From sequence record DRR378314_334: a stretch of 36,540 bases of DNA; one strand, written 5' to 3'. The translations under genes and the position numbers were made by a program. Numbering within the stretch: position 1 is the stretch's first letter; each line of letters opens with the position of its first letter. The notes beneath the pieces were generated by a model. It had not been told where the DNA came from, did not search any database, and saw nothing but the letters and a program-made list of their open reading frames with translations. Below, piece after piece: positions 12,360-36,540 of this stretch.

Positions 12360-13841
12360 TCAGGCCAGAGTTTTTTTCAGGGCGGTTGCCCAGCCGCGGC
12401 GGAGGCGGGCGGACGCGGTCTTTTCCATTTGGGGCTCGAACCGCGTGCCTGGTACGGTGCGGCTGGCCCAGTCATCGACGGATAGCCAGCCAAGCTGCAT
12501 CGCTGCCAGAGCTGCTGCACCAAGCGCTGTCATCTCGCGATAGTCCGGCCGCAGAATAGGCCGTTCGCAAATGTCGGCAATGAACTGCATCAGCCAGTCA
12601 TTCGCCACCATGCCGCCATCAACGCGCAGCTCCCTGATCGCGACACCGTCTGCCTCGAATGCGTCGAGCAGATCCCGCGTCTGATATGCAACGGATTCGA
12701 GGCCCGCGCGGACCAGATGCTCCGCAGTCGTGGCCCGCGTGATGCCCGTAATTGTGCCGCGGGCATCCGCTTCCCAATGCGGCGCCCCGAGTCCGGTAAA
12801 GGCCGGCACGATGTAGACACCGCCATTGCCCGGCAGGCTGGCCGCTATTTCCGCGCTTTCCGCTGCATCCTCGATCAGGCGCAAATCATCGCGAAGCCAT
12901 TGCACGATTGTGCCGGCGTTGAAGATCGACCCTTCCAGCGCCATTGCCCCCCTGCCCGGCGCTTCATAACCAATTGTGCCCAGCAGGCGGTTGACCGATT
13001 GCGGACGATCCTGCCCGCAATTGGCCACCAGGAACGCCCCGGTGCCATATGTAATCTTGGCGGTTCCCACATCCAGGCAAGCCTGACCAACAAGCGCAGA
13101 CTGCTGGTCGCCCGCCGCTGACAGAATCGGCAATGCCTTTCCGAGCAAGGCCGCATCACCCGTTCCAAAATCATCCGCATTCTGTCTTATCTCTGGAAGC
13201 AGGGATTTCGGCACCCCCAGAAGGCTGCACATGGAATCGCTCCAGCCAGCATCCCCGCCCAGGCCAAGCCGGTAGAGCAAGGTCCGCGATGCATTGGTCA
13301 CGTCCGTCACATGGGATGCGCCGCCGGTCAGCTTCCATATCAGGAAGCTCTCGATTGTGCCGAAGGCCAACTCTCCCGCCTCGGCACGCGCGCGAGCGCC
13401 ATCCACATTGTCCAGTATCCAGCCAATCTTCGTGCCGGAAAAATAGGGATCGACCAGAAGGCCCGTCTCTTCGTGCACGGCGGCTTCATGACCCTGCTTG
13501 CGCAGGCGGTCACAGGTTTCTGCCGTGCGACGATCCTGCCAGATAATGGCCGGGGCGACGGGCTTTCCAGTCACACGATCCCAGACGAGCGTCGTTTCGC
13601 GCTGATTGGTAATGCCGATGCCGGCAATACGCTCTACGCCGCCCGCCTCCGCAATCGCAGAGCGGCACACGCCGAGCGTCTTCTCCCAGATCTCCTCGCC
13701 GTCCTGCTCGACCCAGCCATCATTCGGATAAGTCAGCGGCACCTCTTCCTGCGCCAGCGCGACTTCATTCAGGTCGCGGTCGAACACGATTGCCCGCGTG
13801 GATGTGGTGCCCTCATCAATGACGAGAATATAGTCGCCCAT
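12360..13841 (-). CDS. glpK: Glycerol kinase
   Basis: IDEGTTSTRA, GITNQRET, WQDRRT, DPYFSGTK, GDQQSAL, TYGTG and LRVDGG motifs. The real start is ATG 13841; the ORF-track extension overlaps the upstream gene. Confidence 0.93.
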   Translation of the reverse strand: MGDYILVIDEGTTSTRAIVFDRDLNEVALAQEEVPLTYPNDGWVEQDGEEIWEKTLGVCRSAIAEAGGVERIAGIGITNQRETTLVWDRVTGKPVAPAIIWQDRRTAETCDRLRKQGHEAAVHEETGLLVDPYFSGTKIGWILDNVDGARARAEAGELAFGTIESFLIWKLTGGASHVTDVTNASRTLLYRLGLGGDAGWSDSMCSLLGVPKSLLPEIRQNADDFGTGDAALLGKALPILSAAGDQQSALVGQACLDVGTAKITYGTGAFLVANCGQDRPQSVNRLLGTIGYEAPGRGAMALEGSIFNAGTIVQWLRDDLRLIEDAAESAEIAASLPGNGGVYIVPAFTGLGAPHWEADARGTITGITRATTAEHLVRAGLESVAYQTRDLLDAFEADGVAIRELRVDGGMVANDWLMQFIADICERPILRPDYREMTALGAAALAAMQLGWLSVDDWASRTVPGTRFEPQMEKTASARLRRGWATALKKTLA

Positions 13842-13893: not shown

Positions 13894-14361
13894 TCAACGC
13901 GCGTTTCGCTGTGCCCCGCGATCCCCGAACCACCAAAGTGTCGCCGCGGTTGCCGCGAATGTGGCTGTCTCGACGATCTTCGCCTGCTCGGTCTCAGGCG
14001 ACGCGAGAAACACAAGCCACGTGATCAGCCATAGTAGCAGGGTCAGCACGGGCCGGGTCAGCGCGCGCACGGCATTCACCCAGGCATAGCTTTCGCCGAT
14101 GGAGGCCTCTGCCTGCATCGACGCCGCCAGCCCCTGCCAGCGACCAGAGGTTTCGGCCTGCCGCTCTGCTGCTTCGCTCTCTTCCCGGCGCGCCTGCAAT
14201 TCGAGCCCGGCAAGGTGGGCCTCATGTTGCCACCGGGCCCGCTCATGCGCCTGCGACTGGCGCTGTTCGAAGTATCCCGCGGCCCGACCGATCACCGTAC
14301 CGAGCAGGCCGAACACGCCGCCCCCTGCCGCGCTTGCGGCCAGACCGATCAGCTCCGCCAT
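13894..14361 (-). CDS. Holin-like membrane protein (resembles 3TM gene-transfer-agent/phage holin family)
   Basis: Gly/Ala-rich hydrophobic N-terminal helix, charged coiled coil, WVNAVRALTRP followed by a TM segment, second hydrophobic helix ending WWFGDR with a basic tail; overlaps the peptidase stop; AGGAG SD. Confidence 0.6.
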   Translation of the reverse strand: MAELIGLAASAAGGGVFGLLGTVIGRAAGYFEQRQSQAHERARWQHEAHLAGLELQARREESEAAERQAETSGRWQGLAASMQAEASIGESYAWVNAVRALTRPVLTLLLWLITWLVFLASPETEQAKIVETATFAATAATLWWFGDRGAQRNAR

Positions 14362-14768
14362 TTCGACCGGCTCCTCTTATAGTACCAGCGCGCGGGCTGT
14401 TCGCGCCGGTCCAGATGCAGGAAGTTTCGCCCAAGACCCATGCCGGTGAACCCGAGCTCCCCCGCCGCAGAGAGGAGCGCGAACCGGTCATGGCCGATCA
14501 GGGAAATGTCGACGGCCAATTCCAGATGTCGGGATTGCCGCGCGCCGCCAATCTCTGTGTTCCATCCTTCACACCGATGACCGGAATTGATGAACAAGGG
14601 TCGCCCGACCCGTGCGCGCAATGCCTCCAGTGAGTCGAGAAAGTCGGTGTCATGCCAATATTCGCCTTCGCAGAACTGACCCGCACATTTGCAGGCAAGT
14701 TCTCTGGGCGGAAAATGCGGCCAGCGCCAGCCATGCGCATCGAACAGGGAAACAGACGGGATCAACAT
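14349..14768 (-). CDS. Peptidase M15 family Zn metallopeptidase (endolysin-like)
   Basis: WPHF..RELACKC, LEALRARVGRPLFINSGHRC..WN..IGGA..SRH...AVDI and FLHLD motifs (H, D, H Zn ligands); no signal peptide. Confidence 0.85.
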   Translation of the reverse strand: MLIPSVSLFDAHGWRWPHFPPRELACKCAGQFCEGEYWHDTDFLDSLEALRARVGRPLFINSGHRCEGWNTEIGGARQSRHLELAVDISLIGHDRFALLSAAGELGFTGMGLGRNFLHLDRREQPARWYYKRSRSKWRS

Positions 14769-14815
14769 GTCCCGAGGCTGACACGGGCCAGCCTCTGCCG
14801 GATTGGAAACGGTGC

Positions 14816-14858
14816 AAAAAATACAACGCCCCTGAAATCACTCGGATCTCAGGGGCGT
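14816..14858 (-). terminator. Intrinsic terminator after nitronate monooxygenase gene
   Basis: ACGCCCCTGA/TCAGGGGCGT 10-bp stem followed on the minus strand by TGTATTTTTT. Confidence 0.75.
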
Positions 14859-14889
14859 CTTCAATGTAGAGAGCGGGGAGAAGAGGAAT

Positions 14890-15885
14890 CTACTCCGCAG
14901 CCACCGGAGCAACGCCGAACGCCTGACGATTGGCAAGGGCCGCGCGGGCCTCGTCATATTCCCTTGCCAGCTTGTCGACGAATTCCGCCGTCGGCATCCG
15001 CTTGTCGATGGCACCAATGCCTTGGCCACACCCCCAGATATCTTTCCAGGCCTTGGCTTCCTGATTGCCGCCGGATCCGAAATTCATCGCGCTCGGATCA
15101 CTCTCAGGCAGATTGTTGGGGTCAAGCCCGGCCTTTGAAATGGATGGTGCGAGGTAATTGCCATGCACGCCGGTGAACAGGTTCGAATAGACAATGTCGC
15201 CCGCTTTGGAATCGACAATCATGTCCTTGTATCCATCAACAGCGTTCGCTTCGTCGCACGAGATGAAGGCCGAGCCGATATAGGCGAGATCCGCGCCGAG
15301 CGCCTGCGCCGCTGCGATGGACCCGCCATTGGCGATGGAGCCCGACAGCGCAAGTGGTCCGTCAAAGAATTGGCGGATCTCCTGAATCAGCGCGAAAGGC
15401 GACAGGGTGCCTGCATGGCCACCTGCCCCGGAGCAGACGGCAATCAGACCATCTGCGCCCTTCTCCAGCGCCTTGTGCGCGAAGACCACATTGATGATGT
15501 CGTGCAGCACGATACCACCATAGGAGTGGATGGCATCGTTCACTTCCTGACGCGCGCCCAATGATGTGATCACCACTGGCACCTTGTACTTCACGCACAT
15601 TTCCACGTCATGATCGAGGCGGTTGTTCGTCTTGTGGACAATCTGGTTCACCGCAAAGGGCGCCGCCGGGCGATCCGGGTTCTTTTCATTATATTCGGCC
15701 AGTTCTGTCGTGATCTTGTCGAGCCACTCGTCAAGCACGTGTTCCGGTCGGGCGTTCAGCGCCGGGAAACTGCCGACCACGCCCGCCTTGCACTGGGCGA
15801 TCACGAGGTCCGGATTTGAGATGATAAACAGTGGCGACCCGATGACCGGGATGCGCAGGTTCTGGAGAATGGGGGGCAGTGCCAT
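14890..15885 (-). CDS. Nitronate monooxygenase family (FabK/2-nitropropane dioxygenase-like) flavoprotein
   Basis: PVIGSPLFIIS, GSFPALNAR, AVNQIVH, GAGGHAG and WKDIWGCGQG motifs; GAGGT SD. Confidence 0.9.
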   Translation of the reverse strand: MALPPILQNLRIPVIGSPLFIISNPDLVIAQCKAGVVGSFPALNARPEHVLDEWLDKITTELAEYNEKNPDRPAAPFAVNQIVHKTNNRLDHDVEMCVKYKVPVVITSLGARQEVNDAIHSYGGIVLHDIINVVFAHKALEKGADGLIAVCSGAGGHAGTLSPFALIQEIRQFFDGPLALSGSIANGGSIAAAQALGADLAYIGSAFISCDEANAVDGYKDMIVDSKAGDIVYSNLFTGVHGNYLAPSISKAGLDPNNLPESDPSAMNFGSGGNQEAKAWKDIWGCGQGIGAIDKRMPTAEFVDKLAREYDEARAALANRQAFGVAPVAAE

Positions 15886-17354: not shown

Positions 17355-17576
17355 TCATCCCCCGACCAGCCGGTCCTGCATCATGGCCAACCAGCTTTGC
17401 TGGCGATGAAGCATGGATACGATGTCCTCTGAATCCCCGTCTTCAATGAGACGATCCATCCAGAAGCCTAGAATGCGGGTGTGCGTTTCCATCCAGTCCC
17501 TCAAGGCTTCATGCCGGGCTCCTGCCGCCGCGAGCGGCTCTGAAACAGGCTGAAACGGCAAGAGCTTGGCGGACAT
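17355..17576 (-). CDS. Hypothetical protein (73 aa)
   Basis: Fills the intergenic gap; GGGAG SD, upstream sigma70-like promoter and downstream terminator; predicted helical. Confidence 0.65.
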   Translation of the reverse strand: MSAKLLPFQPVSEPLAAAGARHEALRDWMETHTRILGFWMDRLIEDGDSEDIVSMLHRQQSWLAMMQDRLVGG

Positions 17577-34924: not shown

Positions 34925-35340
34925 ACGTCTTCCGGCGCGATCGGTTCAACCGGTGCTGCCTTGCGAGAGCGGGCAATCTGCAGGCCGATCCAGCCGCCGA
35001 TCAGCAATAATGCGAATGGCAGGCTCCACAGCATCCAGCCAGCCACGCCCTCCGCCTTCGGACGGAACAGGACAAACTCGCCATAGCGATCTTCAAACCA
35101 GGTGCGAACCTCTTCGTCGCTTGCGCCTTCCTCCACAAGGGTGCGAACACGCGCGCGCATGTCCTCGGCAATCGGCGCAGAGGATTGCGAGATTGGCTCA
35201 TTCTCGCACGCCACACAGCGCAGCTCCCGCATCAGATCCTGCGCGCGGGCCTCTTGTTGCGGATCGTCCAGCGCCACGTCTTCGGCAAACGCCGCACCCG
35301 CCAACACGACACTGATCAGGATAATGATGATCTGCTTCAT
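34921..35340 (-). CDS. ccmH: Cytochrome c-type biogenesis protein CcmH/CycL
   Basis: LRCVACENE (CxxC), SSAPIAEDMR, RYGEFVLFRP and C-terminal TM; ATGA overlap with the ccmF stop. Confidence 0.9.
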   Translation of the reverse strand: MKQIIIILISVVLAGAAFAEDVALDDPQQEARAQDLMRELRCVACENEPISQSSAPIAEDMRARVRTLVEEGASDEEVRTWFEDRYGEFVLFRPKAEGVAGWMLWSLPFALLLIGGWIGLQIARSRKAAPVEPIAPEDV

Positions 35341-36540
35341 GCTTTCCGCCTCGGCCACAGGCTGAACACACCGCCCAGCGCCATCAGGAGTACGCCGAAG
35401 TATAGCAGATCAATCATCGGGTTGTAGTAGACGCGGAACACCCAGCGCGGTTCGCCCTCCACCATGCGCTGTTCGCCCAGTGCCGCATAGAGATCGCCCG
35501 TGCCGGTCTTGTGGATCGCGGTTTCCGTGGTCGGCATCTGCGCGGCCGGGTAATAGCGCTTCATCGGGGTCATCACCGCGCGGGATCCACTGCGCGCTGC
35601 CGTCAGAACCGCGCGGTCAGCATACCAGTTCGGTCCCTCAATCGCGCGCACTTCGTCCAGTGTCAGCGTCCAGCCGATCACCTCGGCCGAGCCGCCCTCC
35701 GCCAAGGCCACCGTGGTTTCATAGCGTCCGGTCGTCTCCACAACGGCCCCGATCACGAACAGGCCCAGCCCCAGATGCGCCAGCGTCATGCCCCACACAC
35801 GCGGCGGCAGTCGGAAGATGCGGCCCGGCGTGATCCCCCGGCGCTTCAATTCCCAGACAGAGCCGAACACCAGCCACACGCCCAGCGCAAGACCAAGCGC
35901 CGCGCCGATGGAAATGCTCCACAGGCCAACGCCCAGCGCAACGAAGACAAGCGCCAGCGCCGCGCCGCCGACGGCCCATTTGGTCCAGGATTTCAGGTCT
36001 GCCTTGCCCCAGGCCCAGGCCTGCACGACCGGCAGGATGATCAACAACACGCCCAGCATCGGCGTGAAGGTCAGATTGAAGTAAGGCTCCCCGACAGAAA
36101 TCGTGCGCCCTGCGGCCTCCGCCATCAGCGGGAACAGCGTGCCCAGCAGCACGGTCAGTGTCGCCACGATCAACACGATATTGTTCGCCATCAGCGCGCC
36201 TTCACGGCTGAGCAGCGCCCAGGGTTTGCCACCCGCCAGCTTCGGCGCGCGCATCGCGAACAGGACCAGCGCGAAGCCGCCATAGGCCAGCAATCCGCCC
36301 AGCAGCAGCATTCCCCGTTCCGGGTCGACCGCAAAGGCGTGTACAGAGGTCAGGATGCCCGAGCGCACGAGGAATGCGCCCATGATCGAAAACAGGAAGG
36401 CCAGCACCGCCAGCAAGGCAGACCAGGCCGCAAAGCCTTCGCGCTTTTCCGTCACGACCACCGAATGCAGCAATGCCGCCCCGATCAGCCACGGCATCAG
36501 GGACGCATTCTCCACCGGGTCCCAGAACCACCAGCCGCCC
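35337..36540 (-). CDS. ccmF: Heme lyase CcmF/CycK (5' end outside window)
   Basis: GGWWFWDPVENASLMPWL WWD domain, VRSGILTSVHAF, GTLFP and ISVGEPYFN motifs. Confidence 0.95.
   Translation of the reverse strand, partial: GGWWFWDPVENASLMPWLIGAALLHSVVVTEKREGFAAWSALLAVLAFLFSIMGAFLVRSGILTSVHAFAVDPERGMLLLGGLLAYGGFALVLFAMRAPKLAGGKPWALLSREGALMANNIVLIVATLTVLLGTLFPLMAEAAGRTISVGEPYFNLTFTPMLGVLLIILPVVQAWAWGKADLKSWTKWAVGGAALALVFVALGVGLWSISIGAALGLALGVWLVFGSVWELKRRGITPGRIFRLPPRVWGMTLAHLGLGLFVIGAVVETTGRYETTVALAEGGSAEVIGWTLTLDEVRAIEGPNWYADRAVLTAARSGSRAVMTPMKRYYPAAQMPTTETAIHKTGTGDLYAALGEQRMVEGEPRWVFRVYYNPMIDLLYFGVLLMALGGVFSLWPRRKA

Follow-up and report, generated by a model that had tools for sequence, protein, structure and literature searches.

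A candidate lysis cassette of a gene transfer agent, with an M15 peptidase, located between metabolic genes in Hyphomonas

The sequence record DRR378314_334 (36,540 nucleotides; this whole stretch is referred to as the window) contains two overlapping genes, encoding an M15-type zinc peptidase and a small membrane protein, which lie between a nitronate monooxygenase (NMO) gene and glpK. The question raised by this locus is which function is served by a gene pair that has the layout of a phage lysis cassette and is found among genes of metabolism, in a chromosome whose closest relatives, when considering the membrane protein, carry the source name Hyphomonas. The original prediction, made from the sequence alone, described the pair as a domesticated lysis or export module. 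From the comparative analysis presented here it is likely, with a probability of roughly 0.6, that a Hyphomonas gene transfer agent (GTA) of the Rhodobacter capsulatus type (RcGTA) has the pair as its domesticated lysis cassette, in which the endolysin has been swapped. The membrane protein would most likely share its ancestry with the Rhodobacter GTA holin, and the peptidase would be a non-homologous replacement, being an M15 enzyme where the Rhodobacterales use a GH108 endolysin.

Both open reading frames (ORFs) are confirmed on the minus strand and overlap by 13 nucleotides, as the original prediction had described for a peptidase lacking a signal peptide and a membrane protein. The first gene (14349–14768) codes for a candidate endolysin of 139 residues, of which residues 18–120 match the whole profile of the zinc peptidase family Peptidase_M15_3 (PF08291) with 69.3 bits, far above the cut-off of 23.2 (E 3.6e-19); the protein also matches the phage family phrog_894, labelled "endolysin" (E 4.4e-24). 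The motifs SxHxxxAxD (S79–D87, with S79, H81, A85 and D87) and HxD (H118–D120) are intact, and the SRH...AxD stretch can be aligned with 1LBU, a zinc D-Ala-D-Ala carboxypeptidase. In the M15 family, motifs of this type contain the zinc-ligand and catalytic residues. As read from the sequence, the N terminus has no hydrophobic stretch. In a tblastn search the peptidase matches 489 phage records, many annotated as endolysin, the top match being in Rhodobacter phage Jorvik (45.7% identity). NCBIfam contains no match for either protein of the pair. The peptidase is treated here as a candidate endolysin that would cut peptidoglycan.

The second gene (13894–14361) codes for the membrane protein of 155 residues. 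Its ATG (14361–14359) precedes the TGA of the peptidase gene (14351–14349), and a Shine-Dalgarno-like sequence, AAGAGGAG, is found at 14378–14371, 9 nucleotides 5' of this ATG and within the end of the peptidase gene. The overlap and this sequence, which together span 14349–14378 on the minus strand, have the predicted layout of translational coupling.

The top Pfam match of the membrane protein is GTA_holin_3TM (PF11351), with 19.2 bits, below the cut-off of 24.8; the orthologue in the nearest genome (G001, which is 95% identical to the window across the 3.7 kb surrounding the pair) reaches 15.5 bits. An end-to-end match is found with phrog_6637, a phage family of unknown function (E 4.9e-12). 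A search of 1.84 billion representative sequences yields 642 clusters at E ≤0.001, and 110 full-length relatives have been aligned (alignment A1); all 110 match phrog_6637. The two motifs from which the original prediction started, W..A.RAL.RP and WWFGDR, are present as WVNAVRALTRP at residues 94–104 and WWFGDR at residues 143–148, and they coincide with the most conserved columns of the alignment, in which R103 is invariant and W94, P104, W143, W144, F145, G146 and R148 are conserved in at least 90% of the sequences.

The relationship with the GTA holins becomes visible when profiles are compared. Genes matching PF11351 have been collected from a sample of 301 genomes of the class, 79 of which have a match, and they form a subgroup of about 190 residues (A2, six sequences) and a main group (A3, 22 sequences, one of them from the unpublished genome G361). 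With hhalign, A1 aligns to A2 over 114 columns (94%, E 1.4e-7), placing RP on RP and WWFGDR on FYFGAR, and to A3 over 30 N-terminal columns only (77%). At L021, a locus encoding a member of A2, the genes follow the order ccmE, a GH108 + PG_binding_3 protein, holin, ccmF, and this order matches the rcc00555–rcc00556 context as given in the available part of PMC5026251. An ORF of genome G406 matches both PF11351, above its cut-off, and the A1 profile. When compared by profile, the family of the membrane protein is a remote homologue of the rcc00556-type subgroup of GTA holins. The holin similarity proposed in the original prediction thus falls below the cut-off of GTA_holin_3TM itself but is recovered as remote profile homology to the rcc00556-type proteins.

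The genomic neighborhoods of the relatives are also holin-like. Of the 301 class genomes, 23 contain relatives when searched with the A1 profile, often in several copies. Ten neighboring ORFs of A1-type genes were scanned, taken from nine of the 13 class-level loci that were fetched in addition to G001, and these are three M15_3 peptidases, two phage lysozymes, three DUF5675 proteins and two DUF2793 tail-fibre proteins. A holin is expected to be found repeatedly next to wall hydrolases of unrelated families. The DUF5675 proteins are encoded directly 5' of A1-type holin genes, or overlapping them, in other alphaproteobacteria (L120, L121, L123 and L124), and this position suggests that DUF5675 is an unrecognized endolysin family.

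The AlphaFold2 (AF2) model of the membrane protein, calculated from the 110 aligned relatives, has a pLDDT of 91 and consists of helices 2–87, 93–120 and 126–145. In this architecture a Gly-rich hydrophobic N-terminal helix continues into a long charged helix and is followed by two helices that form a hairpin, in which both the RP and the WWFGDR motif are located. The hydropathy profile shows clear segments at about 4–25 and 101–122, and the third helix (126–145) is weakly hydrophobic. No match is obtained at E ≤0.01 when the membrane protein is compared by tblastn with 50,697 phage records, and the comparison of the AF2 model with viral structures by Foldseek gives one match at E ≤0.001, with an uncharacterized protein of an uncultured marine virus, the rest being noise.

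This architecture also allows a different assignment, in which the membrane protein, rather than being a holin, anchors, regulates or chaperones a housekeeping peptidoglycan peptidase, for example in stalk or bud growth. Such a function would be in agreement with the Pfam score below the holin cut-off, with a charged helix that is unusually long for a holin and with conservation of the locus in synteny under purifying selection. It is nevertheless improbable. In a sample of 121 Hyphomonadaceae genomes, searches for the membrane protein gave no match in 39, whole genera included, and many of the genomes that retain it have no peptidase or a broken one. The peptidase also has no export signal. 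Relatives of the membrane protein can be present several times, next to phage lysozymes and M15 endolysins, and all 110 aligned relatives match a phage family.

The locus is widespread within the Hyphomonadaceae. Single-sequence and profile searches detect the membrane protein in 82 of the 121 sampled genomes, nearly always as a single copy, and the M15 peptidase is found in 63 of the 121. The flanking genes in the window, of the NMO family (14890–15885) and of the FGGY kinase family (glpK, 12360–13841), agree by Pfam scan with the earlier description, and the order NMO, partner, holin, glpK is kept across at least 12 genera. Genera g1, g2 and g4 and part of g11 have the M15 peptidase as the partner, g3 and g13 have a DUF2793 protein (once followed by a protein with a Peptidase_S74, or endosialidase-chaperone, domain), and g18 and part of g11 have no partner. 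Genus g1 is Hyphomonas, and these genus labels are distinct from GTA gene names such as g1. From this distribution the holin appears to be the old and constant part of the locus, and the endolysin the part that is swapped or lost. In genus g11 (L012 of G114; L054, L061 and L051) the peptidase gene is frameshifted or absent and the holin gene is intact, GTA-positive genomes included, so that lysis in these genomes must depend on a wall hydrolase encoded at another site, or on the holin by itself.

Pairwise ratios of nonsynonymous to synonymous substitution rates (dN/dS) are 0.06–0.17 for the peptidase, 0.04–0.25 for the membrane protein and 0.03–0.16 for glpK, and the family-wide synteny and purifying selection that the original prediction had left to be examined are both found. 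When the window is compared with G001, the synonymous distance (dS) of the pair is 0.33–0.37, versus 0.08 for NMO and 0.19 for glpK; this raised dS could reflect recombination or a locally distinct history.

The same data bear on the possibility that the pair is a decaying, functionless prophage relic. A phage origin and a few broken copies would fit such a relic, and yet it is extremely unlikely, being disfavored already by the selection (dN/dS 0.04–0.25) and by a single syntenic copy in at least 12 genera, as well as by the intact catalytic motifs and by a composition like that of the flanks (GC of the pair 0.61–0.68, near that of the adjacent glpK, 0.60–0.64). Other phage genes are also missing nearby: a Pfam scan finds no phage, integrase or capsid/tail families among 20 other ORFs of the window, the smaller ORFs being partly scanned, which agrees with the original prediction for integrase, capsid and tail genes.

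A first connection with a GTA is provided by the partner genes. The gene directly upstream of the same holin gene in g3 and g13 codes for a DUF2793 protein, and DUF2793 is the RcGTA tail-fibre family according to the available parts of PMC5026251 and PMC10883770. This gene, having been joined into the locus in both genera, connects it with the accessory genes of the GTA.

A second connection is the GTA cluster itself. Genome G001 has an RcGTA-type head–tail cluster at about 41.9–57.0 kb of contig C7, comprising the genes for terminase, portal, HK97 capsid, a DUF2460 protein (g12), baseplate hub (g13), NlpC/P60 (g14) and a g15 protein of 1207 residues. The pair is located on the same contig, at 10.3–11.2 kb, and the cluster starts at about 31 kb from it (31–46 kb), just beyond the position matching the right end of the window. 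Among the genomes having both on one contig, the distance between the pair and g12 is about 27–64 kb, with one case of 122 kb; this proximity may simply be conserved synteny. Between the pair and the cluster of G001 lie the ccm genes, where ccmE and ccmF abut with a 4-nucleotide overlap and no lysis cassette between them.

Some further features of this region are recorded here. The right end of the window contains ccmF (window 35337–36540; L136 1–1982). In the G001 cluster (L062 13700–15850), about 2 kb of ORFs without Pfam matches are found between the portal and terminase genes, which is unusual for the RcGTA type. About 4 kb from g15, between the ccm genes and the cluster (L136 5227–6162), an ORF whose end resembles, by eye, a LuxR-type helix-turn-helix is accompanied by a GGDEF/EAL-like protein. 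In Rhodobacter, RcGTA is regulated by quorum sensing.

The fate of the pair in genomes with an incomplete cluster also bears on this connection. The presence of a GTA has been scored by g12 (85 of the 121 genomes) and g13 (84 of 121), and these markers disagree in one genome. In Hyphomonas the pair is intact in all ten GTA-positive genomes; in the nine GTA-defective ones it is absent in two, broken in two and intact in five. The two absences are a clean NMO–glpK junction (G121) and a rearranged region (G051), and the broken copies have a deletion spanning the gene junction (G058) or a holin frameshift together with replacement of the peptidase motif histidine (G104). In genus g4, two genomes without GTA markers have a holin frameshift (G063) or five holin stops and a peptidase stop (G092). 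All four broken holins are thus found in GTA-defective genomes, as compared with 17 of the 78 others. Not counted as broken are the gene of G046, which an assembly of 72% completeness splits over two contigs, a second, split copy in G011, and the genes of G032 and G119, in which the lone flagged stop is taken as the gene's own terminator. When considering the Hyphomonas losses and the broken copies of g1 and g4, every genome in which the pair is lost or broken has an incomplete GTA cluster, and this pattern supports the link with the GTA. The remnants of the cluster differ from genome to genome, with intact capsid and terminase genes in G043, terminase only in G113 and G099, terminase fragments in G109 and nothing in G078, and the GTA losses therefore look recent and independent, recurring within one genus.

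The region upstream of the pair points in the same direction. The intrinsic terminator of the NMO gene (14815–14859, minus strand), identified by a terminator scan and having a 15-pair stem and a T-run, is separated from the peptidase ATG by 46 nucleotides, in which no Shine-Dalgarno sequence is visible. The terminator hairpin is kept in the orthologous regions of Hyphomonas and is predicted to insulate the pair from read-through. Within the 46 nucleotides is a promoter-like bipartite motif (14775–14806, minus strand, with the core at 14793–14804), consisting of CCAATCC, a spacer of 19 nucleotides and CAGCCT. The motif ends 6 nucleotides before the ATG, and for this reason the peptidase mRNA is probably leaderless.

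In G001, whose copy of the motif differs from that of the window at a few bases, the 34 nucleotides upstream of the pair are identical at 26 positions to a site 57 nucleotides upstream of GTA gene g1; none of 2000 shuffled sequences reaches this identity, the shuffle maximum being 23. A 32-nucleotide pattern, allowing at most three mismatches, occurs in the G001 genome only at these two sites, and its reversed control does not occur. When extended to the family it is found in six of the 121 genomes, namely upstream of the pair in five Hyphomonas genomes (in G001 also upstream of g1) and, with three mismatches, in a genome of g5, and this pattern is too specific to be useful. The 12-nucleotide core is found at 27 sites in five genomes, compared with two for its reversed control, and these sites are mostly inside genes. 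A position weight matrix (PWM) made from nine pair-upstream regions matches the region upstream of g1 in G001, G072, G117 and G006, with none of 5000 shuffles reaching the score in each case. In G006 and G089 the distance from the AATCC box to the ATG of g1 is 36 nucleotides, equal to the spacing at the pair. In other genera, five of eight loci have ATCC(G/A/C)AC, a spacer and (C/T)AnnCT when the strict pattern is used. A regular-expression scan upstream of terminase genes finds the motif in G006 only, and in eight of the 13 fetched regions g1 could not be located by tblastn. As read by eye, the region upstream of the G001 DUF2793 gene has GATCCGACGG and then TAAGCT.

A third copy of the motif in G001, at C8:11147 (L102 1501–2224), adjoins purD and reads CCAATCCGGCAGGG...TGTCAG, with an ATG at +37; it precedes two in-frame ORFs of 69 and 143 residues that have no Pfam match. 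This locus was considered as a part of a GTA regulon and dropped, its gene not tracking the presence of a GTA. Concerning RNA, metatranscriptome contigs from three studies contain the holin gene in runs X2, X5 and X8 (X2 reaching the 3' end of the peptidase gene) and the peptidase gene in run X6; being assembled contigs, they show presence in RNA libraries and not transcription, strand, ends or level.

Several observations weigh against a GTA lysis cassette and have to be set beside this evidence. The cluster described is that of the nearest genome, G001, used in place of the window's own. PF11351 is matched at E ≤0.01 by only six of the 110 relatives (best 4.5e-4), and the membrane protein is for this reason not a member of the Pfam family. 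No spanin-like ORF was noticed at the locus, with no search aimed at spanins having been made. Within the family, several genera have the holin but no M15 peptidase next to it, the GTA-positive G114 has a frameshift in its peptidase gene, and genera g5 and g8, with a GTA in eight of 18 and seven of seven genomes, respectively, have no A1-type holin by profile and no PF11351 holin. For the motif, the PWM has no significant match upstream of g1 in G089, nor before the DUF2793 gene of G001, where 2453 of 5000 shuffles do as well, and the ungapped comparison of the 34 nucleotides upstream of the pair and of g1 is not significant in G072, G117, G006 or G089, the identities in four other species being 19/34, 17/34, 18/34 and 18/34.

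The remaining adverse observations are also those that would favor a GTA-independent use, in which a domesticated phage lysis cassette serves the autolysis of a subpopulation (releasing extracellular DNA, vesicles or nutrients) or another phage-derived element, and in which the link with the GTA is one of neighborhood and of a common type of stationary-phase or stress promoter. The family-wide association is weak: 61 genomes have holin and GTA, 21 the holin only, 24 the GTA only and 15 neither (odds ratio 1.8, Fisher p 0.2, uncorrected for relatedness), and 17 apparently intact holins are found in genomes without g12/g13. The dN/dS between two GTA-defective genomes, G078 and G109, is 0.12–0.16. 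The motif also precedes an unrelated gene, as the 143-residue ORF of the third copy belongs to a three-copy paralogous family whose presence, in ten of the 121 genomes, does not follow that of the GTA.

It is nevertheless unlikely that the pair acts independently of the GTA. GTA-defective genomes account for all four broken copies and both Hyphomonas losses, and the pair is present in each of the ten GTA-positive Hyphomonas genomes. The apparently recent and independent decay of the GTA can explain why some pairs have stayed intact, and also the dN/dS between G078 and G109. The gene of a GTA tail-fibre family has been joined into the locus in g3 and g13, and the Rhodobacter homologue of the holin has a tested role in GTA release, as described in the available part of PMC5026251. 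The co-occurrence with a GTA cluster is therefore sharp when considering Hyphomonas but weak when considering the family. Of the two functions offered by the original prediction, GTA release is the better supported, by the holin homology, the synteny and selection, the DUF2793 neighbor, the motif shared with g1 and the pattern of decay, and secretion gains no support.

If the pair is a GTA lysis cassette, its mode of action can be outlined. A GTA-specific promoter (AATCC, 19 nucleotides, CAnnCT), just downstream of the NMO terminator, would drive a bicistronic, probably leaderless mRNA. This mRNA would be made together with that of the head–tail cluster. The sharing of the motif is observed, and the activator, the transcription start and the co-expression are inferred. 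The peptidase, lacking a signal, would build up in the cytoplasm, and the translationally coupled membrane protein would be inserted in the inner membrane. By analogy with rcc00555/rcc00556, the membrane protein would then open the membrane, the peptidase would reach the peptidoglycan and cut its peptide stems, and the lysis of the cell would release the GTA particles.

A wider proposal is more tentative and, in our estimate, less likely than not to hold. In this proposal the 155-residue protein and rcc00556 both descend from an ancestral alphaproteobacterial GTA holin, release by a holin is ancestral and the LypABC system of Caulobacter is a later replacement. The element AATCC(G)-N19-CAnnCT would be the site of a GafYZ-type activator, defining a small GTA regulon of the Hyphomonadaceae (head–tail cluster, lysis pair and tail fibre) in which some mRNAs are leaderless. 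For Caulobacter, the available part of PMC9632790 states that no GafYZ binding motif could be predicted.

The comparison with known systems places the locus closest to the release genes of R. capsulatus, rcc00555/rcc00556, which are used for GTA release according to the available parts of PMC3423380 and PMC5026251. Both loci have the order endolysin then holin, are located in the core chromosome away from the head–tail cluster and are vertically inherited, and the holins are remote homologues with common RP and FxFG(A/D)R motifs. The endolysin differs, being an M15_3 zinc peptidase here and a GH108 muramidase with PG_binding_3 there (as seen at L021 and L025), and so does the position, which is NMO/glpK here and ccmE (cycJ)/ccmF there. 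The membrane protein described here is also shorter than the RcGTA holin, has no C-terminal extension and scores under the Pfam cut-off, and the host belongs to the Hyphomonadaceae and not to the Rhodobacterales.

Phage cassettes with an M15 enzyme (phrog_894; T5-type, Vibrio/Escherichia) have the same enzyme family, gene order and overlapping genes, and the membrane protein has phage relatives in phrog_6637. Here, in contrast, no prophage context, integrase or spanin is seen, and the genes are single-copy, syntenic and under selection across a bacterial family.

The Serratia ChiW/ChiX system, a secretion system located outside any prophage, also consists of a holin and an M15-type peptidase. 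Its likeness to the pair, a holin-like protein and an M15-type peptidase not associated with a prophage, is what would suggest a secretion function, in which folded enzymes cross the wall and the cell survives. This is very unlikely. At none of the genera examined does the locus include a cargo gene or a spanin-like partner, its neighbors being metabolic; the partner varies (peptidase, tail fibre or nothing); and the GTA-related neighbors and the promoter motif point elsewhere. The nearby GH43 enzyme starts with a lipoprotein-type signal peptide, and its export would not need a holin/peptidase device. An ORF of 73 residues without a Pfam match is found at 17355–17576 on the minus strand, with the GH43 gene on one side and the methylmalonyl-CoA mutase genes on the other.

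In Caulobacter crescentus the same proposed task, the release of an RcGTA-type particle in a related order, is also carried out by genes outside the head–tail cluster, but with wholly different proteins and mechanism. The available parts of PMC9632790 and PMC13236601 report no holin/endolysin homologue in this species, and PMC13236601, as far as available, describes release via the LypABC CARD-NLR-like lysis hub, with lypABC present in four of 11 GTA-encoding Caulobacter species. The original prediction had named no characterized example in the present lineage, and in agreement with this the literature consulted, including the available main text of PMC7200025 and PMC5721377 and with supplementary tables outside its scope, gave no account of Hyphomonadaceae GTA lysis genes.

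The exit of GTA particles from the cell is known, in the sources consulted, from two models only, the holin and GH108 endolysin of Rhodobacter and the LypABC system of C. crescentus, and the pair is a concrete, testable GTA-lysis candidate for a third lineage, in which Hyphomonas neptunium has genetic tools (cited in the available part of PMC7200025). The CtrA regulon lists of PMC7200025 for this species could be relevant to how the locus is regulated. It suggests a release module whose conserved core is the holin and whose wall hydrolase can be swapped or lost, and it puts a candidate GTA promoter motif in hand. Decay of the GTA cluster appears to come first and that of the lysis genes to follow, and this order bears on the selection that maintains GTAs.

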